A stretch of 13,879 nt of DNA, taken from the NCBI GenBank assembly GCA_934660865.1, contig CAKUIA010000026.1:1-13879 (forward strand), read 5' to 3'. The notes under the pieces were generated by a model that did not search any database, was not told the origin of the DNA, and saw only the letters and a list, made by a program, of their open reading frames with translations. This DNA comes from an uncultured Opitutales bacterium. Lineage in GTDB: Bacteria; Verrucomicrobiota; Verrucomicrobiia; Opitutales; Intestinicryptomonadaceae. Shown piece after piece: positions 3,701-13,508 of this stretch; within the stretch, counting starts at the first letter, position 1; every line of letters starts with the position of its first letter. Position numbers and translations under genes: made by a program.

Positions 3701-4325
3701 AATCGGCGGCGACGGCTGGGCATACGATATCGGCTACGGCGGCTTAGACCACGTTTTGGCAAGCGGCAAGAATGTAAACGTTCTTGTTTTGGATACCGAA
3801 GTATACTCGAATACGGGCGGTCAGATGAGCAAATCTACACCTATTGGCGCGGTTGCAAAATTCGCTTCCAAGGGCAAATCTATGCCCAAGAAGAATCTCG
3901 GCTTGTTGGCTATGGACTACGGCAATGTATATGTTGCCCAAGTTTCGATGGGTGCAAAAGACGCGCAGGTTGTAAAAGCCTTCACCGAAGCAAATTCGTA
4001 CGAAGGCCCCTCGCTGATTATCGCATACAGCCACTGTATCTCGCACGGCTACAACTTGGTAAACGGCCCCGACCAGCAAAAGAAAGCGGTAGAATCGGGT
4101 TATTGGCCCTTGTTCAGATTCGACCCCAGACTAAGAGGCGAAGGCAAAAACCCCTTCATGCTCGATTGCGCAGATCCCAAGATTCCCGTAACCGACTACA
4201 TGATGGCCGAAAACCGCTTCAAGATGTTGCAAAGGTCTAATCCCGAAAGAGCTGCATTGCTTGCAAAAGAAGCTCAGGAATTTGTGGATTACCGCTGGGC
4301 AAAGTACAAGAAGTTGGCCGAATAG
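783..4325 (+). CDS. nifJ: Pyruvate:ferredoxin (flavodoxin) oxidoreductase, single-polypeptide PFOR
   Basis: 1180 aa is the typical length for a fused PFOR. The N-terminus is the diagnostic MKNK..DANEAVASVAFRVSETIAIYPITPSSPMAE pyrimidine-binding region. There are two 4Fe-4S ferredoxin motifs, CIQCGKCSEICP (Cys codon at 2871) and CSGCGLCVSVCP. The ACAGCGETPY atypical cluster region and the TPP-binding motif GGDGWAYDIGYGGLDH..LDTEVYSNTGGQ are present. The C-terminal YWPLFRFDPR is typical of the family. Confidence 0.97.
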   Translation: MKNKNSVITDANEAVASVAFRVSETIAIYPITPSSPMAEFCEEWAVKGKKNIWGLTPDISQLQSEGGVSGAVHGALNTGTLMTSFTASQGLLLMIPNMYKIAGELTSFVLHVSARALASHGLSIFGDQGDVMACRQTGFAMLCSNSVQEAHDMAMIAHAATLESRVPFIHFFDGFRTSHEINTYEMISDEVVEQMIPYEKVIEHRQRALSPEKPFIRGTAQNPDVFFQSIEARNPFYDKCPAIVQAQMDKFAKLTGRQYHVYEYVGAADAEQVVVIMGSGAETVEETVKYLNAKGEKFGVLKVHLYRPFDVKMFVDQLPKTAKTIVVMDRTREQGSAAEPLFLDVATAISQARSQGICQKSFDPSIIGGVYGLGSKEFVPAMVKAIFENAKSANPKPRFTVGINDDVTHRSLPYDESFDLESDKVLRAVFFGLGSDGTVGANKNTIKIIGKETPNYAQAYFVYDSKKSGGITVSHLRFGPEEIKAPYLIGSAQFVGVHQFSFMEKLDVLKCAAEGAVFLLNSIHDANTVWNYLNKDVQKTIIDKKLKFYVIDAYKVAGEMGMGGRINTIMQTCYFAISGVLPADEAIAKIKASIEKTYGKKGPEVVKKNFAAVDASVSNLQKVEVPAAVSATEGFKPTVSDKAPDFVKNVTAVMMRNEGDSLPVSAMPVDGTWPSATTKWEKRNIALFVPAWNPAACIQCGKCSEICPHGAIRTKAYPEELLKDAPATFKSTKFRSKDFANCAFTVQVAVEDCSGCGLCVSVCPAKDKADPSKKAINMTEQEPIREAEAKNFEFFMNLPNPDRTKLGNLPKDVQLRQPLFEFSGACAGCGETPYVKMLTQLFGDRLLVANATGCSSIYSGNLPTTPYCTNPEGRGPAWANSLFEDNAEFGFGYRQSLDVKEAFAKDLLTKFASKFGDDFVNEIVNADQSTEAGIIKQRERVAALKEKLALDNSKEAMLLKPIADDLVKKSVWIIGGDGWAYDIGYGGLDHVLASGKNVNVLVLDTEVYSNTGGQMSKSTPIGAVAKFASKGKSMPKKNLGLLAMDYGNVYVAQVSMGAKDAQVVKAFTEANSYEGPSLIIAYSHCISHGYNLVNGPDQQKKAVESGYWPLFRFDPRLRGEGKNPFMLDCADPKIPVTDYMMAENRFKMLQRSNPERAALLAKEAQEFVDYRWAKYKKLAE

Positions 4326-4353
4326 TTTCCGTACATTCTTGACAAATAATTGG

Positions 4354-4384
4354 GAGCTGCCCGAAAAGGGGCAGCTCTTTTTTT
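4354..4384 (+). terminator. Rho-independent terminator of the PFOR gene
   Basis: Perfect 9-bp GC-rich stem gagctgccc (4354-4362) / gggcagctc (4369-4377), a 6-nt loop gaaaag, then a T7 run (4378-4384). It starts 29 nt after the stop codon. Confidence 0.85.
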
Positions 4385-4584
4385 ACAGATAATTAACTGC
4401 CGCAAACAGATAAAATTTACCTAGCAACCCACAATGCAGATTTTGCCAAAGTAAAATATAAATTACGCACAAAGCGTGTGTAAAATTGCTATATTGCAAA
4501 AAGGCGTAATTGGTAAGATTGGGCAACTTTTAGCCGCTATTGTATATTTACAATTTTTGTGTTTTCCGATAATATTTAAGAAAA

Positions 4585-5454
4585 ATGAAGGACATAGAGA
4601 AAATGGAATATACAACACTAAATAACGGAGTAAAAATGCCGATGGAGGGCTTCGGCGTATTTCAGGTTAGCGATGCCGCGGTATGCGAACGCGCGGTATT
4701 AGACGCCGTCGAAGAAGGCTATCGCAACATAGACACGGCTGCGGCCTACTTTAACGAAGAGGCCGTAGGCAACGCCATACGCAAATGCGGCGTTGCGCGC
4801 AAAGAGCTTTTTATAACAACAAAACTTTGGATTCAAGACGCAGGCTACGAAAACGCAAAAAAGGCGTTCGAAACGTCTATGGAAAAACTGGGGCTGGATT
4901 ATTTGGACTTATACCTTATCCACCAGCCTTTCGGAGACTATTACGGCTCTTGGCGCGCAATGGAAGAACTGCATAAAAAGGGCCTAATACGCGCAATAGG
5001 CGTAAGCAATTTCCAGCCGGACCGCCTTGCCGACCTATGCGCCAATGCCGAAATTAAACCCGCCGTAAACCAGATAGAGCTGCACCCCTTCTACGCCCAG
5101 CCAAACGCGCTAAAATATATGCAATCCGAAAAAATCTGCCCCGAGGCCTGGGGGCCTTTGGCCGAGGGCAAACACGGGATTTTCTCGCACCCCGTGCTTG
5201 CGCAAATAGGCAAAAAATACGGCAAAAGCGCGGCTCAAGTTGCGTTAAGGTGGAACACCCAGCGCGGCGTTGTTATAATTCCAAAATCCACCCACCGCGA
5301 ACGCATAAGGGAAAACCTAAATATTTGGGATTTTCGCCTTAACGACGCCGAAATGGCGGAAATTTCGGCTCTCGATTTGGGGCATAGCGAAATTATAGAC
5401 CACCGAAACCCCGAAACCGTAAAATGGCTTAACAGCCACAAAATACACGAATAA
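4585..5454 (+). CDS. Aldo/keto reductase (DkgA / YtbE / YvgN-like NADPH-dependent glyoxal or diketogluconate reductase type)
   Basis: The AKR catalytic tetrad context is readable: [11 protein letters not shown] (Asp, Tyr), ITTKLW (Lys), LYLIHQP (His). The C-terminal cofactor motif [14 protein letters not shown] and the family motif [16 protein letters not shown] are also present. The second in-frame ATG at 4603 (MEYTTLNNG...) gives a more typical family N-terminus and may be the real start. Confidence 0.9.
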
Positions 5455-5470
5455 CAGCGCCAAACATAAC

Positions 5471-5512
5471 AAAAAAAGGCGAAGCATTGGTTTTGCGTGC
5501 TTCGCTTTTTTT
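5471..5512. terminator. Bidirectional rho-independent terminator shared by the convergent reductase gene and the TIR-TPR gene
   Basis: Stem gcgaagca (5479-5486) / tgcttcgc (5498-5505) with an 11-nt loop. It is flanked by A7 (5471-5477) on the left and T7 (5506-5512) on the right, so either strand reads stem plus U-run. It sits between the stop at 5454 (+) and the stop at 5542 (-). Confidence 0.75.
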
Positions 5513-5541
5513 GGCATTAAACTGCGGCGGCATTAAAAAAT

Positions 5542-8532
5542 TTATTTTCCGCCCAGCTTGGATATGCGTTTTTCAAGCTCTAGCGCTCTTTCTGAGCCTG
5601 CGCCGAAATTTTTTACGATTATCGGAAGCGCCGCCTTGCAATATTGCCCGGCCGATTTAAAATCGCCGCCCTTTTCTAAAATGTCGGCTAAAATCAGGCA
5701 GTTTTCGGCTATTAAAACGTGGTTTGCATGCAGCATTTTCATTCGTATGTCCAAAGCTTTTTTGTAGGCGTCTACGGCTTCGGCCATTTTCCCGCTCTCC
5801 GAATATGCGTCGCCTATATTGCACAGTGTAAAGGCTATGTCGGGGTTTGCAGTCCCGAACATTTCGGTTTGTATTTTAAGCGCCTTTTCGAAAAACTCCA
5901 TTGCCTGCAAAGCTTTTCCCGTTCGCAGCAAAACGGCTCCCCTATTGTTGTATGCCAGCGCAACGCTCGGGTGGTTTTCGCCGAGCGTTTGTTTAAGGAT
6001 TTCAAGCGCGCGCACGCAATAGCGCTCGGCCTGCTCGGGTTTGCCCATCTTAAGATACGCCGAAGAAATGTTGCCGCATGCTATTGCAACATCTGAATGG
6101 GTTTTGCCCAAAGACTTTTCCTGAATTGCCAGGGCCCTTTTGTAGTAGTCTACCGCGGCTTTGTAGTTTTTTTCCAGCTCCATTACCAAGCCCAAATTGT
6201 TTAGCGAGCGCGCCAAAAGCGGGTGCGACATTCCCAAATTTTTCCTTCTTGCCTCGTAGGCTATTTGGTTGTGGTGCCTGCAGTTTTTCGAATCGGTAAG
6301 GTGGTAGTAAACGCTGCCCAAATTGCTGTGCGTAATGGCGGTTATTGTGTGGCTTTCCCCGAAAATCCTTTCCTGAATTGCCAGGGCTTTTTGGTATTCT
6401 TCGGCGGCTTTTTGATATTCGCCGCGGCGAAAGTAAAGGCTGCCTATGTTGTTTAGCGTGCGCGCTTTGTCGGCAAGGCCTGCGTCGCCGAATTTTTCCT
6501 CTATAGACAGCGCCTCCGAATAGCTTTTAAACGCCGAGCGCCACTTGCTTTGCCTGTTGTATACCCCGCCAATATCGTCGTGCGAGCGCGCGGTTTCAAG
6601 GTGCAAATTGCCGTAAAATTTAAGGCGTATTTCAAGCGCCTTTTGGTAGGCTGCAATGGCTGCTGCAAAATTTTCGTTTTCAAGGTTTGCGTCGCCTATA
6701 TTCGAGTATGTAACCGCCAAATCGGGGTGGCCGTCTTTGTGTATTGCCTGTTGTATTTTAAGGGCCAAATCGAAACATTCCAAAGCTTTTGCATATTCTG
6801 CAAGCTTTATGTACACGCAACCGATGTTGTTTTCAAGCCTTGCAATGTCGGGGTGCTTTGCGCCGAATGCCGCGGTTTCCAACTTTATTGCCTTTTGGTA
6901 GCTTTCAAGCGAGCTTTTATATTCGCCCATATGCTCAAGCACGGTGCCCATATTATTCAGTGTAAGCGCAATGTCGGGGTGGTTTTCGGGCAGATATTTT
7001 TCCTGAATGTCAAGCGCCTTAAAATGGTATTTTTTGGCGGCGGCAAAGTCGCCCAGTTTGTCGAGCTGAACGCCTATATTGTTTAGCGTTCTTGCAAGTT
7101 CCGATTTTTTTGTTTCGGGGTTTTGCCTTTGTATTTTCTCGGCTTTTTCCATCAGCCTTGCCGCGGTTTTGTAGTGGCCCATTGCGCTTTCCGACAAAGC
7201 TATGTTCGAATACGATATTGCAACCGCAGGGTGCAAAGCTCCCAAAATTTTCGCCTGCAAATCTAGCGCTTCTTTGTAGAAATTTACGGCAAGTTCGTAT
7301 TCGCCCCTGTTAAAGCAGACAAGCCCCATATTGTTTAAAATGCCCGCCCGCGAAAGCGCGTCTTCGTCGGAATTGCCGCTGTAGCAGTCCATAGCCTTTT
7401 GTATAAGCCGCTTTGCCTTGTCGTATTCGCCGTACGAATTGAAAATTGCGCCTATTGTGCGGTAGACGGTTGCGCGCACTTTGGGGTGTTTAATCTTGTC
7501 GATATCGGCCAACGCCGCCGACATAGCCTCGAGCACGGTTGTATTTTTGTTGCCCTTTTGAGACGGGTCGCTCGACATTAAAATATCGCGCAGAAAGTCG
7601 AAAGTTTGCGAGGTTTGCTTTGATTGGTCTACCGCCCTTGCCTCCGAAATTCTGGCCTGTTTTTCCGATTCTACCGCGCGTTTTTCCGACGCGCGGGCGG
7701 CGGCTTCGGAAGCGCGCGCTACAGCCTCCGACTTCTTTGCAAGCTTTTCCGACTCTATTGCCCTTGCCTCCGAAACGCGCGCAATTTTCTCCGATTCTAT
7801 TGCGTGCTTTTCGGATATCCTGGCGGCGGCTTCCGACTTTACGGCCTTCGCCTCCGAAATTTTGGCTGCGGCCTCCGAAACGCTTGCCTTGTGCTCGGCG
7901 TGCAACGCCCACATTGTAAGAACGGCAAAGCCCGCAACCGCGCTAAACGCGTAAAAGAGTATTATCTGCAAAATTCTGCGTTTTTCGCGCTGAAAACGGT
8001 TCGATATTTTTGCGCGCGAAACTTTCAGCATATACGATACAACCTGCACAAAGCCGTTTTCCCAACCCTGCTTTTGGGTTTCGTCGTCGGACTTGCGCAT
8101 GTCGGGCAGGTTGCGCGATTTTATGTCTTCGCCGTATTCGGCAAGCGCGGGGCAAAGAACGGTGTCGATATTGTCGCCCTCCAAAAATACGGGAATAACG
8201 CGCGAAATATCGTTGTTGTGGGTTTTAAGGAAATATTTTATTTCCTCGTTGCACCATTTAGACGCCGCAAAATTCTTCGAGCACAGCGCAATAACGTAGC
8301 GCGATTCGCCAAGCGAGCGCTCTATCTCCTTCTTAAAACTTTCGTCGGTAGACTCAAGTTCGTTTTTGTCGAGAAATATATTGCGAATGTATACGGGGTG
8401 CCACGGCCTGTTTTCGGGCAAAACAAGTTTTGCGGGGTAGCGGAATTTTTCGATTTGCCTTTGCAGCCACGCAGCGGCGGTCTTGTCGCGGCGCGAGTAG
8501 CTTATAAACGCATAGTATTTTGTTTGCGCCAT
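5542..8532 (-). CDS. TIR domain - single TM helix - heptad coiled coil - 15x TPR protein (996 aa)
   Basis: N-terminus YYAFISYSRRDKTAAAWL ... LDKNEL ... VIALCSKNFAASKWCNEEIKYF ... VIPVFLEG reads as a TIR_2-type domain. One 24-aa hydrophobic segment (ILQIILFYAFSAVAGFAVLTMWAL) follows, then 12 SExxAxx heptads and 15 tandem 42-aa kinesin-light-chain-type TPR units (consensus ..LNNIG.VY...GEY..A...Y.KAL.IQEK..G..HPD.A). No Walker A (GxxxxGK[ST]) or NB-ARC-like region is visible anywhere. Confidence 0.9.
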   Translation of the reverse strand: MAQTKYYAFISYSRRDKTAAAWLQRQIEKFRYPAKLVLPENRPWHPVYIRNIFLDKNELESTDESFKKEIERSLGESRYVIALCSKNFAASKWCNEEIKYFLKTHNNDISRVIPVFLEGDNIDTVLCPALAEYGEDIKSRNLPDMRKSDDETQKQGWENGFVQVVSYMLKVSRAKISNRFQREKRRILQIILFYAFSAVAGFAVLTMWALHAEHKASVSEAAAKISEAKAVKSEAAARISEKHAIESEKIARVSEARAIESEKLAKKSEAVARASEAAARASEKRAVESEKQARISEARAVDQSKQTSQTFDFLRDILMSSDPSQKGNKNTTVLEAMSAALADIDKIKHPKVRATVYRTIGAIFNSYGEYDKAKRLIQKAMDCYSGNSDEDALSRAGILNNMGLVCFNRGEYELAVNFYKEALDLQAKILGALHPAVAISYSNIALSESAMGHYKTAARLMEKAEKIQRQNPETKKSELARTLNNIGVQLDKLGDFAAAKKYHFKALDIQEKYLPENHPDIALTLNNMGTVLEHMGEYKSSLESYQKAIKLETAAFGAKHPDIARLENNIGCVYIKLAEYAKALECFDLALKIQQAIHKDGHPDLAVTYSNIGDANLENENFAAAIAAYQKALEIRLKFYGNLHLETARSHDDIGGVYNRQSKWRSAFKSYSEALSIEEKFGDAGLADKARTLNNIGSLYFRRGEYQKAAEEYQKALAIQERIFGESHTITAITHSNLGSVYYHLTDSKNCRHHNQIAYEARRKNLGMSHPLLARSLNNLGLVMELEKNYKAAVDYYKRALAIQEKSLGKTHSDVAIACGNISSAYLKMGKPEQAERYCVRALEILKQTLGENHPSVALAYNNRGAVLLRTGKALQAMEFFEKALKIQTEMFGTANPDIAFTLCNIGDAYSESGKMAEAVDAYKKALDIRMKMLHANHVLIAENCLILADILEKGGDFKSAGQYCKAALPIIVKNFGAGSERALELEKRISKLGGK
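5584..7476 (-). repeat. Array of 15 x 42-aa TPR units (KLC / TPR_12-like), aa ~353-983
   Basis: I could lay out 15 consecutive 42-residue units by eye. Each ends in ...HP(D/S/A)(I/V/L)A or a variant and restarts with (R/L/I)(T/S)(L/Y)(N/S)N(I/M/L)G. The copies are diverged at DNA level. Confidence 0.85.
7627..7878 (-). repeat. 12 tandem 21-nt / 7-aa repeats (SExxAxx) encoding a predicted coiled-coil stalk
   Basis: Protein reads SEAAAKI SEAKAVK SEAAARI SEKHAIE SEKIARV SEARAIE SEKLAKK SEAVARA SEAAARA SEKRAVE SEKQARI SEARAVD. The DNA shows ctccga/ttccga/ttcgga recurring every 21 nt. The periodicity also generates the long stop-free alternative-frame ORFs in the track. Confidence 0.9.
7903..7974 (-). 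other. Predicted transmembrane helix (aa 187-210)
   Basis: 24 consecutive hydrophobic or small residues, ILQIILFYAFSAVAGFAVLTMWAL. The 15 residues before it (SRAKISNRFQREKRR) carry 7 K/R; the 15 after it (HAEHKASVSEAAAKI) carry 2. By the positive-inside rule the N-terminal TIR is cytoplasmic. No prediction program was run. Confidence 0.7.
8128..8520 (-). other. TIR domain (aa ~5-135) of the 996-aa protein
   Basis: The FISYSRRD beta-A/AA-loop motif, the SKWCNEEI motif (equivalent to the plant and bacterial SxWCxxEL motif carrying the NADase glutamate; E97 codon at 8242-8244) and the VIPVFL strand. Domain ends are approximate. Confidence 0.8.
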
Positions 8533-8533
8533 G

Positions 8534-11500
8534 CTATTTGCGGTGTCTTAAAAACGCAGCCGCAAGCAACGCGGCAAAGGCCAAAATTGCCGCAGTTTCG
8601 GCGGGTTCGGGAACAACGGTACTAAACCTTATTTCAAGCGAGTTTTCCTCCAAATAAAAATCCCATTGGCCGGTATACGGCTTGTCGTTAAGGCAAAGGG
8701 TTATGTTAAAGTCCTTCTCCAAATCGGCAAGCGACGCCATATTGCAATCGTCTGTCCATTCCATAATGGTAAAGCCGAATTCCGATTGCGGAAGCTGCGT
8801 GATGTCTACTATAATATAGCCGCCGTCGAGAACAAACGAAGCCCCCTCGGAAAACGAAATGGGAACAATGCCGCTGTCGGGATTTACTACAATGTGAATG
8901 CCGCCGTTTTCGGAAAGCGTAAGCGATTTTCCGTTTAGAACTTCAAGTTGCGCGTCTTCCAAAAGCTTTAGCTTGGCGTTGGATACCACTGCATTGTCGT
9001 AGTATATTTTTGCCGAAACGGCGCTTTGCCCCGCTTTTGGCCTGTGTGCAATTATGTCTATGGAAGTTGCCGAATTTGAAGCCGAAAAATTGCGTATCCT
9101 GCCGTCGGCATACAACACGTTTGTAAGCGAAGAAGCAGTGTCTACGCAGTAGTCCGAAACATTCGACCCCCTAAAATCCACCCTCTCTAAAATTGCTCCG
9201 TTAAAGACCATTCCTTTTGTATCGCTTACATCTTTCGAGTTTTCGATAACCTTAACCGACACATTTTGAAAGTTTACGTTTTTTAGAGTTGTTCTTTGTC
9301 CATAATAATCATCAGGATCACAATAAAACCCCTTTGCGCCGCCCGAAACACCCGTAGAAATTGCGGTAAAACTTGCTCCGCTAAAATCTACATTGCTAAT
9401 AATAGCTACCGAATCTACGTAAAAGCCAGTGGCCCATGACATATCTTGCGATTCAGAAGTTGCATAAAATGTAGCGTTTCTAAAATCCGTATTTGTTATG
9501 TTTCTACCAGAATAAAATGCGCTACTTTGAGCAAGGTAGTCTTTACCAACCGCGCTTGTTTTAAATACTGCCCCGCTAAAATCGCAATCGGTTATGTCTT
9601 TTCTTCTCATCAAAAAGCCAATACTTTGTGCATGGTAGTTAGAATTTGATGTTGCTGTAAATTCAGCATTTGCAAAATTAGAATTGATTATACTTTCGTC
9701 CGAATAAAAACCGTATGCACCTGCGGCATAAAAATTAGTTCCCGAAGTTTCATTGGAACTTACATTTATTTTTGCCCCTACAAACGATGCGTTTACTATA
9801 TCGTTTCCCACAACGCTAAGTCCGTATGAATATGCCCCGTTCTTTGCATTTGTTTCGGTATAAATTTCAACACCGTCGGCCAAAATTATGCCGTCGCCGC
9901 TTTTGTTCGACAAATCAATACCGTATGCATCTGCCGAACCGTTTGAATTTTCGGCCGAAGTATATATTTTTGCATTGTTTGCGCAAAAGGCATAACCGCT
10001 TTTAGAACCGTTGTTTAGTTGCGTATCGGCAAGGTTTATGCCGCGCGAAATAATGTCGCCGCTGCCCAAGCCGTTAGAGGCGCTAACTTCTATAACAGTG
10101 TTGCCAAAGTTTACATTTTCCAGCGTAGAGCCGCCGAAATTTGCGCCAATAAACACCGTAGGGTCTGCCGAAGTAGAATCGTTTACGCCGCTTGCAATAA
10201 CGCTAGAGCCGCTAAAGTCGGCATTGGTAAGCTTGCCCTTATACATTGTAATTGCGCAAGACTGCGTTTGCTTGTCGTAGCTGTTTAAAGCCGAAGTGTT
10301 GTCGGAAACAAAAGTTGCATTTTTTGCCGACAGGTTTTTTATGTCGGCACCGGCCATAGCCAAAGCGTAGGCTTCGTTTTCGGCCTGCGAATACACGCTT
10401 GCATTGTCCAGCGTTATGCCGTTTATATTCGAGCGCGAAAGAAACAACCCTATAGACGTAGCGCCCTGCGTTTTGGAAATTTGCGAGCCTGCAAGGTTTA
10501 AATTGCCAACATTTGCGCCCTCGGCAAAACCCAACGCAAATATGCCGTTTTTATCGGCAACGCTGGCCGAAACTTTTTGCGCATTCATATCCGAAACGGT
10601 TTTGCCGTTAAAATTCCAGCCGCTAACGTCCAGCCCCGAAATATTCAACCCGCGTATTGTGCCGTCGCCATAGTCGCGAGTAGAATAGAATTGCTCTTTC
10701 GTTAAATTCGAACCCGCAAAGTTTGCCCCCGACACTGCAAGACCGTTTAAGTCGGCACCTTTCAAATTTGCGCCGCCAAAATTTGCGTTTGTTGCATCGG
10801 CATTGGCAAGTATTGCGTTGGTAAAATCCGCGTAAGAGGCGTTTGTGTTTTTAAGATTGGCGTTTGTCAGGTTTGCCGAGTTAAAATCGGTTTTGTCTAG
10901 TTGCGAATTTTCGAAGTTTGTGCCTACGGCTTTTGTGCTGCGAAATTTTACACCCGAAAATGTTTTGTCGGACAAATCCTGCCCGCTTATGTCTTTGCCG
11001 CTGTAGTCTAAAGTTGTTTCTTCGGTGATAATTATTGTGTTGTCGGGCAGTTGCGCCCCGTCAGAATCGCCGCCTGCGCCAGCAGAATTGGAACCGCCCG
11101 CCGAGGCCTCCTGTCCCCCGGATTTATTGTCGGCAGAAGTGTCGGTGTTTTTAGCCACATCGTTTGCAGATACATTTGAATCGGATTTTACCGTGCTAGA
11201 CGATGTGGTTTTGCCAGTCGAATCCTTTTCGGTGGTAGTTGTAGTAGAAGTTCCGTCGGGATTGTTTACATAGTCGGTCTTTTTTGTGCTGCCGTCGGAA
11301 CGCGTGTCGGTTATCGAAGCCTCTTTAAGCGTAGTTTCCACTTTTTCGGAGGGCAGCTGCGAAACGTCTTTGCCGCCTATTGTACCCGAAGACGAACCGT
11401 CTTTTACAACCAAGTCAACTTTCGATGTATTGCCCGAGTCGCCGCTTCCAGTTTTAGTTTCGCCCGAAACGCTCGTAGTTCCGTCGGGGTTTGCCTTTAT

Positions 11501-11989
11501 AACAAGGTCGGCCTCTACGGTTTTGTCGTCGCCGGTAAATTTAATCGAAACGGTTGTATTGTCTTCCTTGTCTACCGAAGAAACTACGTCCAAAATTACG
11601 TCGCCTTCGGCGCCGTCGGCGTCGCCCACACCGTCGGCAAGAACTTTAGAAACCGCGTCTAAAACGTCTTTGTTGCCCGAGTCGCCCAAAGAGTCTCCCA
11701 AAGCCGAAACCAAAGCGTCGGCCTGCTTTGCCATAGAGCCCGTGTCGCCCTCAAGCGGCGGCGTTAAAACCAGTTGCGCGTCCGACGATTTTGCGGATTT
11801 GCCCAATTTTACGCGTACGCGGCCGTATTTTGTATCGAAAGAATAGTCGCACGACTGCAACACAATTTCCTCTCCCGAAAATTTCGCCAAAAGATTTATT
11901 GCGCCCGCCTGAACGTCGGCCTGGGCAAAAAGCCCGCAGCCCGTAAACAACATTGCAAACAGCGTTATCGAAAAAAATATTTTTTTCAT
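8534..11989 (-). CDS. Large exported PEP-CTERM protein with pentapeptide repeats and a beta-helix-like repeat array (~1151 aa from the ATG at 11989)
   Basis: The ORF is open from 12073, but Met29 (ATG at 11989) starts a classic signal peptide, MKKIFFSITLFAMLFTGCGLFAQA|D. Using it removes a 41-nt overlap with the upstream gene. The C-terminus VVPEPAETAAILAFAALLAAAFLRHRK has the PEP motif, a hydrophobic helix and a basic tail, which is the PEP-CTERM architecture. Internal pentapeptide repeats and a long degenerate repeat region are listed separately. Confidence 0.85.
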   Translation of the reverse strand: MKKIFFSITLFAMLFTGCGLFAQADVQAGAINLLAKFSGEEIVLQSCDYSFDTKYGRVRVKLGKSAKSSDAQLVLTPPLEGDTGSMAKQADALVSALGDSLGDSGNKDVLDAVSKVLADGVGDADGAEGDVILDVVSSVDKEDNTTVSIKFTGDDKTVEADLVIKANPDGTTSVSGETKTGSGDSGNTSKVDLVVKDGSSSGTIGGKDVSQLPSEKVETTLKEASITDTRSDGSTKKTDYVNNPDGTSTTTTTEKDSTGKTTSSSTVKSDSNVSANDVAKNTDTSADNKSGGQEASAGGSNSAGAGGDSDGAQLPDNTIIITEETTLDYSGKDISGQDLSDKTFSGVKFRSTKAVGTNFENSQLDKTDFNSANLTNANLKNTNASYADFTNAILANADATNANFGGANLKGADLNGLAVSGANFAGSNLTKEQFYSTRDYGDGTIRGLNISGLDVSGWNFNGKTVSDMNAQKVSASVADKNGIFALGFAEGANVGNLNLAGSQISKTQGATSIGLFLSRSNINGITLDNASVYSQAENEAYALAMAGADIKNLSAKNATFVSDNTSALNSYDKQTQSCAITMYKGKLTNADFSGSSVIASGVNDSTSADPTVFIGANFGGSTLENVNFGNTVIEVSASNGLGSGDIISRGINLADTQLNNGSKSGYAFCANNAKIYTSAENSNGSADAYGIDLSNKSGDGIILADGVEIYTETNAKNGAYSYGLSVVGNDIVNASFVGAKINVSSNETSGTNFYAAGAYGFYSDESIINSNFANAEFTATSNSNYHAQSIGFLMRRKDITDCDFSGAVFKTSAVGKDYLAQSSAFYSGRNITNTDFRNATFYATSESQDMSWATGFYVDSVAIISNVDFSGASFTAISTGVSGGAKGFYCDPDDYYGQRTTLKNVNFQNVSVKVIENSKDVSDTKGMVFNGAILERVDFRGSNVSDYCVDTASSLTNVLYADGRIRNFSASNSATSIDIIAHRPKAGQSAVSAKIYYDNAVVSNAKLKLLEDAQLEVLNGKSLTLSENGGIHIVVNPDSGIVPISFSEGASFVLDGGYIIVDITQLPQSEFGFTIMEWTDDCNMASLADLEKDFNITLCLNDKPYTGQWDFYLEENSLEIRFSTVVPEPAETAAILAFAALLAAAFLRHRK
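8537..8617 (-). other. PEP-CTERM sorting signal
   Basis: V-P-E-P (codons at 8603-8614), then AETAAILAFAALLAAAFL (hydrophobic) and RHRK (basic) directly before the stop at 8534-8536. Confidence 0.85.
9149..10441 (-). repeat. About 12 degenerate ~32-aa repeats of an unrecognised type (I-x-N-x-D/N-F-x-x-A-x-F-x-x-x-S ... A-x-G-F-Y)
   Basis: Clearest copies: IINSNFANAEFTATSNSNYHAQSIGFLMRRKD / ITDCDFSGAVFKTSAVGKDYLAQSSAFYSGRN / ITNTDFRNATFYATSESQDMSWATGFYVDSVA / IISNVDFSGASFTAISTGVSGGAKGFY... / LKNVNFQNVSVKVIENSKDVSDTKGMVFNGA / ILERVDFRGSNV. Earlier copies are more degenerate and the boundaries are approximate. Confidence 0.65.
10688..11002 (-). repeat. Canonical pentapeptide-repeat block (A[D/N]LxX type), ~20 pentads
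   Basis: GKDISGQDLSDKTFSGVKFRSTKAVGTNFENSQLDKTDFNSANLTNANLKNTNASYADFTNAILANADATNANFGGANLKGADLNGLAVSGANFAGSNLTKEQF shows 5-residue periodicity with central L/F and A/N/D/S at i-2. Confidence 0.85.
11054..11491 (-). other. Low-complexity S/T/D/G/K-rich linker (long-ORF aa ~195-340)
   Basis: Runs such as NPDGTTSVSGETKTGSGDSGNTSK, NPDGTSTTTTTEKDSTGKTTSSSTVKSDSN and GGQEASAGGSNSAGAGGDSDG. NPDGT(T/S) occurs twice. Likely a disordered or glycosylatable spacer. Confidence 0.7.
11918..11989 (-). other. Signal peptide (Sec/SPI AQA|D site; an alternative lipobox-like FTG|C lies upstream)
   Basis: MKK n-region, hydrophobic core IFFSITLFAMLF, then both FTGC (lipobox-like, with F at -3) and AQA|D (AxA signal peptidase I site). 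Which site is used cannot be decided from sequence. Confidence 0.7.
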
Positions 11990-12032
11990 ACGGTTTCTAT
12001 CTATAAAGCTTTTTTCGGGTAATAATGCCGAG

Positions 12033-13508
12033 CTAAAGCGACTGTTTAGACGCCAGTATTTTGTTGATTTCAAAAACTATATCCACATTGTCGCGGTCGT
12101 ATTTTTCGTAGTCTTCGCCGAACATTTCCGAAACCGGCTTAAGCTCGTCGAACGGAACAAGGCAGGTATGCAACTTTTTTGCGGTGTCTTTGTTTTCAAC
12201 CATCATCTCGCCCGAAAGATTTAATTTGTCCCAACCGCGCGAATATAGATAGGCGCACCAGCGCAGGTGCTCGGTTCTGGTAAGCGTGTCGTACTTGGCT
12301 GGATTGTCGCGCAGCCACGCCCTGTAGGCGTTTCCGTCGGCAAATTTTCCGAAAATTTCGCGCCCTATCATTTTCACAAAACTGTAGTTAAAATCGGCAA
12401 CCGAAATGTTCGACCCCCTTTCAAAGTCGGTCATTCCTATCCAATTTTTCATTTTCATAGAATCCAGTTTTGTTTTGTTGTAATAGTCGTTTACAAAACG
12501 CCCGCCCATTGTAAAGGCGTCGGCCATTATGGCGTCTACACTATATACGCTTTTAAGACTTCCGAATGGCTGCACATTAGGCATGGAACTTTCGTCTAAA
12601 TGGGTAGTTTCCAAAAACGGCGCAACGGTTGTTTCGGCGTTGAACGACTCTACAAGGCGCTCCTGCACGCTCTTTGCAAAATCAAAAGTCGCTTTTTCGT
12701 CGTCTAGGTCTACCACAACCAAATCGTATTTGCCGAAATCCAGCTTTTGGACAAGCTCAAGCGGGTTTACCTCTATTTGCTTAAACTCCACATCGCCGAT
12801 AAAGCCCGAAAACTTTTCGCAAAAGGCCCTGCATTTTGCCGCTACCGAAACGTCGAAAACGTCAACAAAAAACCTTGCCCCCTCAAACCTGCCCTGCTCG
12901 TAGGTTTTAAGCAATGCCTCGCGGGAATTTTTTGTAAAGCCAACAACGGCCACTTTAATGTCTTTCTTTGCCCTAAGCGTGTCGCTGTCGAACTGCATTG
13001 CGTCTACAGGCCTGAATTTTTTTGAAAGCGTATACGCCGCAAGCTTCGACGGATTTACAAGCTTTACATTAAAAGTTGCAAGAATGTCGTTTTGGCACGA
13101 AATTAAAAAACGCTCTATTTCCTCCCAGTTGGGGGCTATGTACATTGAAAAATCGTCGAACGAAGCCCCGCATTTTTTTGCGGCTTTCATAATCTGCGAG
13201 GAAAGCGAGGCGTTGCGGTCGGCATTTTTAGAAATGAAAAAGAACTCGTTTTTGCCGTCCGAAAAAAAGCGTTTTATTTGGCGGTCCGAAAAAACGAATA
13301 TGTCCGAATCGAATTCTACGGTTTTTACTTTTACGCGATTTTTAAAATCGGCCCATTGAACATCGCAAAACGACTGCTTGCTGCCCAAAAACAAAATTTT
13401 TGCCGTAGAACTCGACCTACCGTATATGTCGGCGGCAAGCATTCTGTGTTCGGGATTATTGCCGAAAAAAACGTATTCGGTATCGGAATTATAAAAGGCG
13501 TTTTTCAT
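12033..13508 (-). CDS. RyR-domain protein with two degenerate Rossmann/RCK-N-like modules (491 aa)
   Basis: The C-terminal third matches the bacterial RyR-domain pattern: WIGMTDFERGSNISVADFNYSFVKMIG (W..L....SN...AD....K..G), then RTEHLRWCAYLYSRGW...KDTAKKLHTCLVPFDELKPVSEMFGEDYEKYDRDNV (EH.RW......GW....kd...K.HPcLVP(Y/F)DEL.....K..DRd.V). The N-terminal two thirds contain two strand-loop-helix starts, YVFFGNNPEHRMLAADIY and KVAVVGFTKNSREALLKTY. These resemble TrkA-N/RCK Rossmann folds but lack GxGxxG. No signal peptide or TM segment. Confidence 0.85.
   Translation of the reverse strand: MKNAFYNSDTEYVFFGNNPEHRMLAADIYGRSSSTAKILFLGSKQSFCDVQWADFKNRVKVKTVEFDSDIFVFSDRQIKRFFSDGKNEFFFISKNADRNASLSSQIMKAAKKCGASFDDFSMYIAPNWEEIERFLISCQNDILATFNVKLVNPSKLAAYTLSKKFRPVDAMQFDSDTLRAKKDIKVAVVGFTKNSREALLKTYEQGRFEGARFFVDVFDVSVAAKCRAFCEKFSGFIGDVEFKQIEVNPLELVQKLDFGKYDLVVVDLDDEKATFDFAKSVQERLVESFNAETTVAPFLETTHLDESSMPNVQPFGSLKSVYSVDAIMADAFTMGGRFVNDYYNKTKLDSMKMKNWIGMTDFERGSNISVADFNYSFVKMIGREIFGKFADGNAYRAWLRDNPAKYDTLTRTEHLRWCAYLYSRGWDKLNLSGEMMVENKDTAKKLHTCLVPFDELKPVSEMFGEDYEKYDRDNVDIVFEINKILASKQSL
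12069..12536 (-). other. RyR (ryanodine-receptor repeat)-like domain region, aa ~325-480
   Basis: Motifs as listed for the CDS. EHLRW is encoded at about 12258-12272 (ccagcgcaggtgctc on +). Boundaries are approximate. Confidence 0.7.

Follow-up and report, generated by a model that had tools for sequence, protein, structure and literature searches.

Domain architecture and genetic context of a predicted membrane-anchored TIR-TPR protein from an uncultured Opitutales bacterium

The locus considered here raises two questions: on which side of the membrane would the two halves of a bacterial protein lie that joins an N-terminal TIR domain to a long TPR array through a single hydrophobic helix, and to what would such a protein signal? 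The window (the whole stretch of 13,879 nucleotides that was analyzed) carries its gene among metabolic genes (PFOR, aldo-keto reductase) with no obvious defence island around the locus, and PADLOC found only generic TIR and TPR similarity in the window.

Architecture and predicted topology of the TIR protein

The gene and the parts of its product are as follows:

5542..8532, minus strand: TIR-TM-TPR gene, ATG at 8532, product of 996 aa
8083..8520, minus strand: TIR domain (aa 5-150), from Pfam matches, with Glu97 in the motif S-K-W-C-N-E-E-I
7975..8082, minus strand: juxtamembrane extension (aa 151-186), an amphipathic helix followed by a K/R-rich cluster
7903..7974, minus strand: single TM helix (aa 187-210), predicted N-in signal-anchor from hydropathy and charge bias
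7597..7902, minus strand: helical stalk (aa 211-312) with 12 exact heptads S-E-x-x-A-x-x at aa 219-302
7498..7596, minus strand: conserved cap before the TPRs (aa 313-345), recognized by its motif F-L-R-D-I-L-x-S-S-D-P-S-x-K-G-N-K...
5545..7497, minus strand: about 15 KLC-type TPR units of 42 aa (aa 346-996), a predicted extracytoplasmic sensor solenoid, from Pfam and periodicity

The order from the N- to the C-terminus (TIR, one hydrophobic helix, heptad stalk, cap, TPR solenoid) agreed with the initial annotation and was borne out by Pfam, the hydropathy scan and the heptads, the gene lying on the minus strand. The TIR domain matched Pfam TIR_2 at aa 9-148 (E 1.1e-16; 61.8 bits, the cutoff being 28), TIR (E 1.9e-9) and ThsB_TIR (E 3.8e-7). 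Its Glu97 was invariant in 26 aligned relatives and was aligned by the family profile to the Glu of the plant TIR motif SSWCLDEL (AtTIR, 3jrn; ROQ1, 7jlv), indicating a TIR probably of the NADase type with the catalytic-type Glu kept. The juxtamembrane extension was the best conserved segment between orthologues (83% identity; 79% for the TIR domain), and its motifs RNLP and GWENG..Q..SY.L were kept across the family.

A Kyte-Doolittle scan over 19 residues gave one TM-grade segment at aa 187-205/210 with a score of 2.26, the only one above 1.6 (next best 1.27). It comprises 24 uncharged residues without Pro and was only 38-42% identical to the orthologues, as expected for an anchor. A recount of K and R gave seven in the 15 residues before it, which close the juxtamembrane extension, and two in the 15 after it, exactly the numbers given previously.

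The stalk heptads were uninterrupted with S1, E2 and A5 invariant, no 21-bp tandem repeat was present under the stalk at the DNA level, and AF2 drew, with low confidence, one unbroken helix from aa 181 to 319. The orthologues had 13-14 heptads and other relatives stalks of 18-32 aa, the range among relatives being 18 to 109 aa. The initial annotation had the stalk dimerizing as a coiled coil; the heptads are perfect, but oligomerization through a coiled coil is unproven because the would-be a/d core consists of invariant Ala/Ser rather than Leu/Ile/Val. The cap motif was kept in the TPR-class relatives P0002, P0003, L005 and L083 and was 73-79% identical between orthologues, while a search with the cap and the first TPRs produced no matches. 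The remaining C-terminal region was covered over approximately aa 345-990 by TPR_12 (E 3e-118) and TPR_10 (E 8e-78), with TPR_NPHP3 also matching, and its best PDB sequence matches were kinesin light chains. The proposed count of about 15 KLC-type repeats held up: self-identity peaked at lags of 42 and 84, 14 unit markers of the N-N-[ILM]-G type were spaced by 42 aa, and the AF2 model had about 16 helix pairs (pLDDT 70-90), which fits about 15 TPRs plus a cap. This was the most divergent part between orthologues, where the identity fell from 51 to 40%.

No NTPase family was among the Pfam matches of the protein, and a pattern search revealed neither a Walker A nor a Walker B motif. The 135 residues that separate the TM helix from the first TPR are all accounted for by the stalk and the conserved cap, so that there is no room for an NB-ARC domain, and the view that the TM helix and the stalk stand in its place was upheld.

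These data suggest a type II (N-in) single-pass membrane protein with the TIR domain in the cytoplasm and the TPR array predicted to face outward. The N-terminus is a folded domain of 186 aa without a signal peptide. Nearly all full-length homologues had exactly one TM helix at approximately aa 190-230. Of 135 homologues, 108 had more K+R before it than after it and six had fewer (mean 5.3 against 3.4); the bias is moderate, the stalk being K/R-rich itself. Across the family this bias favors the TIR-in/TPR-out orientation as a prediction, as initially proposed. More distant members have RHS repeats and PDZ domains C-terminal to the helix, the gene product described below as a partner is soluble, and Ser/Thr kinases of the PVC bacteria provide an independent precedent, in which a single TM helix joins a cytoplasmic kinase to TPR/WD40 arrays, periplasmic according to DeepTMHMM (PMC11032199). 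The earlier assignment of KLC-type arrays to cytoplasmic STANDs as the normal case was too narrow, omitting these receptor kinases.

The TIR-TM family and the gene cassette

A phmmer search with aa 1-215 as the query against 1.84 billion representatives yielded 9605 matches below an E-value of 1e-3, of which 124 were below 1e-30, and the alignments extended through the TM helix. The common core of the family consisted of TIR, juxtamembrane extension and single TM helix, and because more than 100 independent relatives repeat this layout the architecture is not a product of chance. The C-terminal part was WD40 in 50 of 125 relatives, TPR in 47 and of another kind in 28. The protein was first taken for a curiosity but is one of a large family whose ectodomains are TPR, WD40 or other. 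The 76 genome loci obtained were mostly from Opitutales, Lentisphaerae, Kiritimatiellia, Verrucomicrobiae and Planctomycetes. Several paralogues per genome were found, with seven loci in a single MAG and tandem arrays of TIR-TM genes in at least 15 loci, while the family was essentially absent from viral contigs. Judged by its sequences, this is a large family, undescribed so far and centered on the PVC superphylum, and its conserved TIR-juxtamembrane module with a swapped, fast-diverging ectodomain would fit a receptor repertoire.

The TIR gene closes a conserved three-gene operon (RCK-RyR, then PEP-CTERM, then TIR-TM-TPR), whose other members are:

12033..13508, minus strand: first gene, soluble 491-aa tandem-RCK and RyR protein, from profile and AF2/Foldseek
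8534..11989, minus strand: middle gene, exported pentapeptide-repeat PEP-CTERM protein of 1151 aa (1179 aa from an upstream TTG)

The middle gene product begins with a signal peptide/lipobox-like sequence (MKKIFFSITLFAMLFTGC), ends with a PEP-CTERM anchor (VPEPAETAAILAFAALLAAAFLRHRK) and matched Pfam Pentapeptide (E 5e-22); its stop codon lies 1 nt from the ATG of the TIR gene (TAG-C-ATG). In the window this large, unrelated-looking gene lies between the RyR and TIR genes. The cassette recurred in L083, with a partner of just 44% identity, and in L085+L005; in L005 an integrase follows directly downstream.

The 491-aa partner had two Rossmann/RCK-like domains (approximately aa 8-170 and 180-300) and a C-terminal RyR domain of the R12 type (approximately aa 395-480), with neither a signal peptide nor a TM helix. 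Its family profile matched the RyR1 chimera 6uhi (E 5.6e-11) and the putative RyR protein 3nrt of B. thetaiotaomicron (E 2e-5) in the PDB. The AF2 model built with an MSA reached a pLDDT of 87 and a pTM of 0.89, and its best whole-chain Foldseek matches were the RCK gating rings of CASTOR, BK and Slo2.2 (TMq ~0.44). Residues H414, W417, H447 and D471 were invariant and correspond by spacing to the ligand and catalytic residues H75, W78, H100 and D117 of RyDEP (PMC13232231); according to the same 2026 preprint, phage RyR domains bind or cleave 2'/3'cADPR from Thoeris TIRs.

Homologues of the partner adjoined TIR-TM genes in Opitutales, Kiritimatiellia, Lentisphaeria, Treponema, Coriobacteriia and Bacteroidales, while no TIR gene was present within 8 kb of the homologue P0165. 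In total, 21 RyR ORFs lay beside TIR-TM genes in 16 of the 76 loci (~21%) and at least five phyla, a raw count within the fetched flanks (0.93 Mb). One neighbor, in L055, was by Pfam a fusion of a K+ channel with RyR, others were stand-alone RyR proteins of about 100 aa, and in other loci TPR-S proteins neighbored the TIR-TM genes. The adjacency to RyR suggests outside-in TIR signalling.

Proposed mechanism and alternatives

The operon context, with its RyR partner and exported PEP-CTERM protein, did not figure in the initial annotation. It points to a mechanism, and at a probability of about 0.5 we favor a membrane-anchored TIR receptor with a periplasmic TPR sensor, an NADase-type TIR and a RyR partner that reads the TIR-made signal. 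The TIR domain and the basic juxtamembrane segment would lie in the cytoplasm, and the long helical stalk with the solenoid of about 15 TPRs in the periplasm, where it would bind or monitor an extracytoplasmic ligand; candidates are the co-encoded PEP-CTERM protein or whatever disturbs it, such as phage or envelope damage. The ligand would cluster the receptor via the stalk and the TM helix and so gather the cytoplasmic TIR domains. As in known bacterial and plant TIRs with the conserved Glu, the assembled domains might cut NAD+ to an ADPR-type signal, for example 2'/3'cADPR, and the gene linkage and the conserved ligand residues make the RyR domain of the partner a candidate for binding or hydrolyzing it. 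The partner of other loci is channel-like and membrane-bound; the one here is soluble and gating-ring-like and may have a different target or determine the signalling threshold. Because RyR domains can also degrade the signal, the partner could be a negative regulator and not an effector.

A self-contained membrane-tethered abortive-infection effector, whose TPR-triggered TIR depletes NAD+ with no signal being read and the RyR gene unrelated or mopping up by-products, would agree with the conserved catalytic Glu, with the approximately 79% of TIR-TM loci that have no RyR gene in the fetched flanks, and with E. coli TIR-II, a single-protein TIR-TPR defence (PMC11350192). We consider it unlikely, because RyR, TPR-S and channel-RyR genes recur beside TIR-TM genes in at least five phyla, the partner retains all four cADPR-contacting residues, and the three-gene order is kept even at 44% partner identity. 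Equally doubtful is envelope or cell-surface signalling instead of immunity, in which the periplasmic TPR array, in the manner of the expanded PVC receptor Ser/Thr kinases, would bind the PEP-CTERM protein or other exported clients and report client sorting, surface state or cell-cell contact, the TIR product being an ordinary second messenger that acts via RCK-RyR on ion flux. The bacterial TIR enzyme systems characterized to date are all defence systems (PMC11350192; bioRxiv 10.64898/2025.12.03.692087), the numerous, quickly diverging paralogues and the tandem arrays are what conflict genes typically show, and the L005 integrase points the same way; on the other side stand the translational coupling to the exported PEP-CTERM gene, kept in three genomes, the centering of the family on PVC bacteria with expanded TM kinases bearing TPR/WD40 ectodomains, the metabolic neighborhood, the near-absence from viral contigs and the gating-ring resemblance of the partner.

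Two further readings concern the protein itself. In the other topology the hydrophobic segment would be peripheral, re-entrant or inserted on activation only, with TIR and TPR both cytoplasmic and tethered to the inner leaflet. In its favor, cytoplasmic sensors classically use KLC-type TPR_12 or G-beta-type WD40 arrays as their arms, no Pfam domain exclusive to the outside of the cytoplasm was found in the closest relatives, and the TPR region contains 10 Cys. This topology is nevertheless very unlikely: the uncharged, Pro-free segment is too short for a helical hairpin and is charge-flanked like a canonical TM helix at a position kept in more than 100 relatives, and the consistent family-wide charge bias, the RHS and PDZ ectodomains and the periplasmic repeats predicted for the analogous PVC kinases all oppose it. 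Least probable of all, and only a slight chance in our estimate, is a non-enzymatic scaffold as in animal TLRs that recruits a TIR protein or adaptor via TIR-TIR contacts; the TLR-like architecture, the tandem TIR-TM genes and the extra TIR genes in some loci (e.g., a ThcB4-like TIR in L012) would suit it, but the family keeps the catalytic-type Glu without exception, its profile matches best to plant TIRs that are enzymes, ROQ1 among them, and both linked domains, RyR and TPR-S, serve nucleotide signalling.

Comparison with known systems

The receptor with its RyR partner is best read as a Thoeris-like TIR signalling system whose sensor would be membrane-anchored and extracytoplasmic. Thoeris systems defend against phage with a TIR sensor and synthase, ThsB, and an effector to which a cADPR-type signal binds. 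In common with them, the TIR matched ThsB_TIR and TIR_2 with a conserved catalytic Glu, and its gene is linked to domains tied to TIR-made nucleotides (RyR here, PMC13232231; TPR-S in sister loci). In contrast to the soluble cytoplasmic sensor ThsB, this TIR is tethered through its TM helix to an ectodomain of about 785 aa that is predicted to be extracytoplasmic, and an exported PEP-CTERM gene belongs to the cassette. Tandem-RCK with RyR was not among the Thoeris effector types found in the literature; the 2025 systematic survey contains none of the terms RyR, TrkA and RCK.

The TLR logic invoked by the initial annotation holds as far as the solenoid-TM-TIR order, with a repeat solenoid as the predicted ectodomain, one membrane-spanning helix and the TIR in the cytoplasm, to which many paralogues with divergent ectodomains can be added. 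Its observation was confirmed and its interpretation partly supported. Unlike animal TLRs, the protein would be type II with an N-terminal TIR, has TPR (WD40 or RHS in relatives) instead of LRR, keeps the NADase Glu where TLR TIRs are scaffolds, and has a RyR-domain partner in place of a MyD88-type adaptor. The resemblance is no more than an analogy; nothing points to common descent of the whole architecture. The PVC receptor Ser/Thr kinases (PMC11032199) share the phyla, the layout of cytoplasmic output domain, TM helix and TPR/WD40 array, and the lineage-specific expansions, differing in having a kinase as the output domain. [quoted passage not shown] Finally, the partner shares with phage RyDEP and RyR (R12, PF02026) proteins the His/Trp/His/Asp set by which RyDEP contacts or cleaves 3'cADPR, and stand-alone RyR genes of about 100 aa occur beside TIR-TM genes in sister loci; in contrast to phage RyDEP, the RyR genes here are host-encoded and TIR-linked rather than phage counter-defence, with RyR fused to two RCK/Rossmann-like domains and, in relatives, to a K+ channel pore or 2-4 TM helices.

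Architecture of the TIR-TM-TPR protein

The gene at 5542-8532 (minus strand, ATG at 8532) encodes a protein of 996 aa, whose layout of TIR domain, transmembrane (TM) helix, stalk and TPR array, as proposed in the initial annotation, was confirmed by Pfam, by a hydrophobicity scan and by repeat periodicity. TIR_2 covered aa 9-148 (E 1.1e-16, 61.8 bits against a cutoff of 28), the Pfam TIR (38 bits, cutoff 21.3) and ThsB_TIR (30.9 bits, cutoff 21.2) profiles also scored above their cutoffs, and TPR_12 (E 3e-118) together with TPR_10 (E 8e-78) covered approximately aa 345-990. NCBIfam and PADLOC returned generic TIR/TPR similarity only. The Kyte-Doolittle scan gave a single TM-grade segment at aa 187-210 (score 2.26; runner-up 1.27), which, with 24 residues and no Pro, is too short for a hairpin. 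The C-terminal region showed a periodicity of 42/84 aa, and the AF2 model contained approximately 16 helix pairs there; both fit some 15 predicted TPRs plus a cap. The whole-protein AF2 run was of the single-sequence type and, with a pLDDT below 40 for the TIR domain, was left unused for TIR structure. Tandem Repeats Finder detected a short repeat with a 21-bp period within the TPR-coding region (6385-6428, 2.1 copies, 83% match), which probably reflects the repetitiveness of the encoded protein.

The absence of an NTPase, also claimed previously, was upheld: no NB-ARC/NACHT P-loop family was found between the TIR domain and the repeats by Pfam, NCBIfam or PADLOC, no Walker A/B pattern was present in the 996-aa protein, and the position is occupied by the TM helix, stalk and cap, leaving no spare sequence. 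A degenerate NTPase in this interval was thus ruled out, and the protein, lacking the central NTPase, falls outside the STAND/NLR-like NTPases.

The stalk contained 12 unbroken heptads of the form S-E-x-x-A-x-x at aa 219-302, with Ser1, Glu2 and Ala5 invariant, and AF2 modeled one continuous helix at aa 181-319 with low confidence. The orthologues had 13-14 heptads, and the stalks of other TPR-class relatives were only 18-32 aa long. Its i/i+3/i+4 face is formed by Ala/Ser, not by Leu/Ile/Val, and the bigger hydrophobic residues are spread over positions 4, 6 and 7, so that the Leu/Ile/Val a/d core of a canonical coiled coil is missing. Of the oligomerising coiled coil proposed earlier, the heptads held up and the hydrophobic core did not: there is good support for a rigid helical spacer, and a dimerising coiled coil remains a hypothesis. 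A recent 21-bp repeat expansion in the stalk was ruled out, since Tandem Repeats Finder sees no tandem repeat there.

In an alignment of 26 sequences, E97 in the motif SKWCNEEI was invariant, as were D55, R140 and N141. The best matches of the family profile in the PDB were the plant TIRs AtTIR and ROQ1, and E97 aligned with the Glu of their 'SSWCLDEL' motif, i.e., with the Glu of the W-x-x-x-E pattern. In the TIR NADases of plants and bacteria this Glu is catalytic, and its conservation indicates that the TIR domain is probably an enzyme rather than a TLR-type scaffold. Between orthologues, identity was 77-79% in the TIR domain and 83% in the juxtamembrane segment, against 38-42% in the TM helix and 51% in the TPR array, falling to 40% distally; the pattern is that of a putative conserved output module joined to a putative fast-evolving sensor. 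The family TIR profile also matched (E 4.9e-4) an 824-aa 'tetratricopeptide repeat protein' in PDB entries 9m0n and 9umd, which appears to be a soluble TIR-TPR protein and could serve as a structural template for how the TIR and TPR parts relate.

Family extent and predicted orientation

A word-indexed search with aa 1-220 recovered six relatives only, all with TIR and TM, including one protein (P0006) with a beta-rich C-terminus instead of TPRs. The exhaustive phmmer search with aa 1-215 among 50%-identity representatives returned 9605 proteins at E<1e-3, of which 124 reached E<1e-30, with alignments extending through the TM helix and with exactly one hydrophobic helix, at approximately aa 190-230, in almost all full-length matches. 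The presentation of this protein as unique was thus wrong, thousands of relatives carrying the TIR-TM module, and these relatives, together with the presence of the identical protein on 4 independent metagenome contigs, ruled out a one-off fusion or gene-calling artefact. When 125 C-terminal regions were assigned by Pfam and clustered, 50 proved to be WD40 propellers and 47 TPR arrays, the rest being a class of nine members of approximately 400 aa, a class of five members, and singletons without Pfam matches. No diagnostic periplasmic domain was found by Pfam in the close relatives of the non-TPR, non-WD40 type, and kinship with receptor-kinase ectodomains was probed by a word-indexed search that used the cap and the first TPRs, which gave no matches.

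The genome scan gave no match with the single sequence and needed the family alignment (A3), with which 104 relatives were found in 76 loci, mostly of Opitutales, Lentisphaerae/Victivallaceae, Kiritimatiellia, Verrucomicrobiae and Planctomycetes, with lower-identity members in Desulfobacterales, Akkermansia, Bacteroidales, Treponema, Coriobacteriia and Firmicutes. With 74% identity, an uncultured Opitutales MAG gave the best match, which makes an Opitutales bacterium of the gut or rumen the most likely source of the window; seven loci belonged to one Lentisphaerae MAG. Tandem TIR-TM genes, two to four each, were present in at least 15 loci. A phage or prophage origin was considered and rejected, the family having a single weak match among 2.9 million viral contigs.

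The proposed orientation, with the TIR domain inside and the TPRs outside, was judged probable. The 15 residues preceding the TM helix carry 7 K/R and the following 15 carry 2, exactly as counted in the initial annotation, and the bias extended to the family: K+R were more frequent before than after the helix in 108 of 135 homologues, equal in 21 and reversed in 6 (mean 5.3 vs 3.4). The preceding side is a folded domain of approximately 186 aa with no signal peptide, and NAD+, the substrate of TIR domains, is cytoplasmic. More distant genome-derived members have RHS repeats, PDZ domains or ankyrin repeats past the TM helix, the RHS and PDZ domains being a hint of an exported C-terminus. The Ser/Thr kinases of Planctomycetota, found within the phyla of the family, are an independent precedent: the kinase lies in the cytoplasm and is followed by a single TM helix and by TPR/WD40 arrays that DeepTMHMM predicts to be periplasmic (PMC11032199). 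Because the charge bias, the N-terminal fold, the helix length, the RHS/PDZ relatives and the kinase precedent agree, TIR-in/TPR-out is accepted as the most probable predicted topology.

One homologue, from Kiritimatiellia (locus L001), has a PDZ-like tail of approximately 120 aa after the TPRs and an unusually Cys-rich TPR part. Its TIR-TM part (3313-4221, 302 aa) and TPR part (4206-6092, 628 aa) were called as overlapping ORFs, which may reflect a frameshift, misassembly or a true split of the gene.

The cassette and the linked RyR-domain genes

The other genes of the window are as follows:

783-4325, plus strand: full-length pyruvate:ferredoxin oxidoreductase (POR_N, POR, EKR, Fer4, TPP_enzyme_C)
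4585-5454, plus strand: aldo/keto reductase, convergent with the TIR gene across an 87-bp spacer
8534-12073, minus strand: middle gene, exported protein, with possible starts at ATG 11989 (1151 aa) and TTG 12073 (1179 aa)
12033-13508, minus strand: partner gene, 491 aa, 43 nt upstream of the middle gene

The two plus-strand genes are ordinary housekeeping neighbours. No recognisable terminator was found in the 87-bp spacer, and the promoter and terminator scans gave no informative signal. The ATG of the TIR gene lies one nucleotide past the upstream stop codon (TAG-C-ATG), an operon setting that the initial annotation overlooked. For the middle gene, the gene callers chose ATG 11989, which places the signal peptide (MKKIFF...) at the very start, and the TTG 12073 start overlaps the partner gene. 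The middle protein, spanning MKKIFFSITLFAMLFTGC to VPEPAETAAILAFAALLAAAFLRHRK, combines pentapeptide repeats (Pfam E 5e-22) with a signal peptide containing a lipobox-like stretch and, at the C-terminus, a PEP-CTERM anchor; with its signal peptide, P-E-P, TM segment and basic tail it has the make-up of a PEP-CTERM substrate, a call read by eye from the sequence, the PEP-CTERM HMM having given no match. Past the pentapeptide region, degenerate 'N-F/A-x-x-A-x-F' repeats extend over approximately 700 aa and may fold into a beta-helix.

The gene order was retained in another assembly (locus L083, protein P0168), where the RyR partner is followed by a 1955-aa pentapeptide PEP-CTERM protein ending in IPEPAEYAAIMGLLVLVFARYYKRRK and by a TIR-TM-stalk-TPR gene. 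The partner homologue P0166 (L084, L085) is followed by a large gene at the contig end, and its MAG also holds the L005 contig, which starts with a PEP-CTERM C-terminus followed by the TIR gene; near a further homologue, P0165, there was no TIR gene. Downstream of the TIR gene of L005, the 74%-identical orthologue, a tyrosine-recombinase-type integrase (4317-5366, minus) and a 736-aa P-loop dynamin-like GTPase (5601-7811, plus) occupy the position held in the window by the aldo-keto reductase and the pyruvate:ferredoxin oxidoreductase, which means that, in at least one genome, the DNA next to the cassette is variable or mobile.

The 491-aa partner alone had no Pfam match. Its family profile matched a RyR1 chimera (6uhi, E 5.6e-11) and a protein of B. 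thetaiotaomicron (3nrt, E 2e-5) in the PDB, and H414, W417, H447 and D471 were invariant in 17 homologues, which identified a RyR (R12, PF02026) domain. The MSA-based AF2 model (pLDDT 87, pTM 0.89) had two Rossmann/RCK-like domains followed by the helical RyR domain, and the best whole-chain Foldseek matches were the tandem-RCK gating rings of the CASTOR, BK and Slo2.2 channels. Many relatives of the partner carry two to four TM helices at the N-terminus, which the window copy lacks. RyR domains bind 2'/3'cADPR, and in the phage protein RyDEP four critical residues, His75, Trp78, His100 and Asp117, contact the ligand, His75 and Asp117 forming a catalytic dyad, as described in a 2026 preprint, in which the four ligand residues are conserved across PF02026 (PMC13232231). 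By motif and spacing, H414, W417, H447 and D471 are their counterparts. The invariance of all four in the 17 homologues provides a specific mechanistic link between a TIR-made molecule and the partner, which seems built to recognise the class of molecule that TIRs make.

ORF clustering of 80 loci demonstrated that partner homologues adjoin TIR-TM genes, mostly co-directionally and with gaps of 5-30 nt. The HMM of the RyR part was matched by 21 ORFs, distributed over 16 of the 76 loci from the genome scan (0.93 Mb covered), a presumed enrichment that is judged by the general rarity of RyR genes.

RyR-domain and TPR-S genes linked to TIR-TM genes
L001 (Kiritimatiellia); L007, L015 (Opitutales); L012, L042 (Lentisphaeria): partner homologues
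L047, L049 (Treponema); L053, L054 (Coriobacteriia); L073 (Bacteroidales): partner homologues
L048, L067: TrkA_N/RCK-RyR proteins
L001 731-1030; L012 2828-3112; L042 10628-10933; L043 5565-5879; L046 9730-10020: stand-alone canonical RyR ORFs of 95-105 aa (Pfam E 1e-26 to 1e-37)
L055 4030-5643, plus strand (Oscillospiraceae): K+ channel-RyR fusion, approximately 2.4 kb upstream of the TIR-TM gene at 8001
L066 1673-4498 (Hydrogenedentota MAG): RelA_SpoT, TPR/TPR-S and C-terminal RyR, 941 aa, upstream of the TIR-TM gene
L011 6530-7837; L044 12290-13594; L042 6168-7379 (Victivallaceae/Lentisphaerae): TPR-S (PF20308) proteins, approximately 435 aa

The L055 fusion combines a 2-TM pore (Ion_trans_2, E 2.6e-13) with a TVGYGD filter and, at the C-terminus, a RyR domain that scores above the Pfam cutoff at 32.3 bits, and may be a nucleotide-gated channel linked to the TIR-TM gene. 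RelA_SpoT, joined to the RyR domain in L066, is a nucleotide pyrophosphokinase. The stand-alone RyR ORFs, RyDEP-like in size, often adjoin a larger RCK-RyR gene; their products could be host-encoded signal buffers or hydrolases. TPR-S is a 'TPR sensor' domain, reportedly defined by Burroughs et al. (NAR, 2015). The TPR-S proteins sit directly downstream of TIR-TM genes and may represent another kind of reader for the TIR product; a 2025 preprint (bioRxiv 10.64898/2025.12.03.692087) credits Aravind and colleagues with predicting such a TPR domain in TIR signalling. The Treponema MAG locus L047 has, besides its RCK-RyR gene, a 1269-aa TIR-less protein with TPR_12 and CHAT (caspase-like) domains (4166-7975) between two TIR-TM genes.

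Proposed pathway and relation to known systems

A tentative pathway, to which we assign a probability of roughly 0.3, would give PVC and some other bacteria a repertoire of transmembrane TIR receptors that would sense extracytoplasmic ligands by exchangeable TPR, WD40 or RHS ectodomains, and whose cADPR-type messenger would be read by RyR-domain proteins, RCK-gated and K+-channel fusions among them. The TPR solenoid, spaced off the membrane by the helical stalk, is predicted to sense something periplasmic; the PEP-CTERM surface protein is a speculative candidate for the ligand or a guarded component, solely because of the conserved translational coupling. Engagement would cluster the receptors and the cytoplasmic TIR domains would assemble, by analogy with TIR activation in general; given the conserved Glu, the assembled domains could turn NAD+ into an ADPR-type messenger, which the partner, to judge from gene linkage and residue conservation, would bind or remove through its RyR domain. 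In sister loci, where the partners look like ligand-gated channels, signalling could therefore end in ion flux or depolarisation; in the window, the soluble gating-ring-like partner would act on another target or set a threshold.

Such receptors may function in anti-phage defence, and the fast-diverging paralogues, the tandem arrays and the integrase beside the L005 orthologue all speak for a role in defence or conflict. They may equally serve envelope or social signalling, and it is with ordinary signalling of this kind that the metabolic neighbourhood, the near absence of the family from viral contigs and the parallel with the PVC kinases fit.

To our knowledge, the role demonstrated so far for bacterial RyR domains is solely phage counter-defence; the linkage described here suggests a cellular function for them and gives a concrete, testable downstream step. 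If confirmed, the pathway would connect TIR-made cADPR isomers to bacterial ion-channel regulation. It would also bear on a long debate about animals, namely how cADPR relates to ryanodine receptors, whose modulation by cADPR has been reported there.

The proposed mode of working comes closest to that of Thoeris, with a TIR synthase and a signal-binding partner: a RyR gene for a putative signal-binder is in the same conserved cassette, with one gene between. In contrast to Thoeris, the TIR domain here is membrane-anchored with a predicted external sensor, and a 2025 survey of Thoeris types names no RyR effector type, the terms RyR, TrkA and RCK being absent from it. In the literature searched, whose coverage was incomplete so that a prior description is possible, no bacterial TIR-TM-repeat receptor family or TIR-RyR pair was found. 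The characterised bacterial TIR immune and signalling proteins that we found all sense triggers inside the cell; a sensor outside the cytoplasmic membrane, if true, would be the first bacterial 'ectodomain - TM - TIR' logic, and one that comes in many diversified paralogues. In architecture, the nearest relatives are the receptor kinases of PVC bacteria, which differ in the output domain.

The architecture 'repeat + TM + TIR' is listed in a review as typified by animal TLRs (PMC9153377). The TLR logic read into the protein by the initial annotation holds for the single-pass TM helix between the repeat solenoid and the TIR domain, conserved in the family and with predicted sidedness. It fails for the ectodomain, which is TPR_12/TPR_10 with no LRR family found, and for the type I orientation, as the TIR domain is N-terminal with no signal peptide and the TM helix lies at aa 187-210; the resemblance to TLRs is one of layout only. 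If true, the pathway would prefigure both TLR-style receptor logic and the cADPR modulation of ryanodine receptors.
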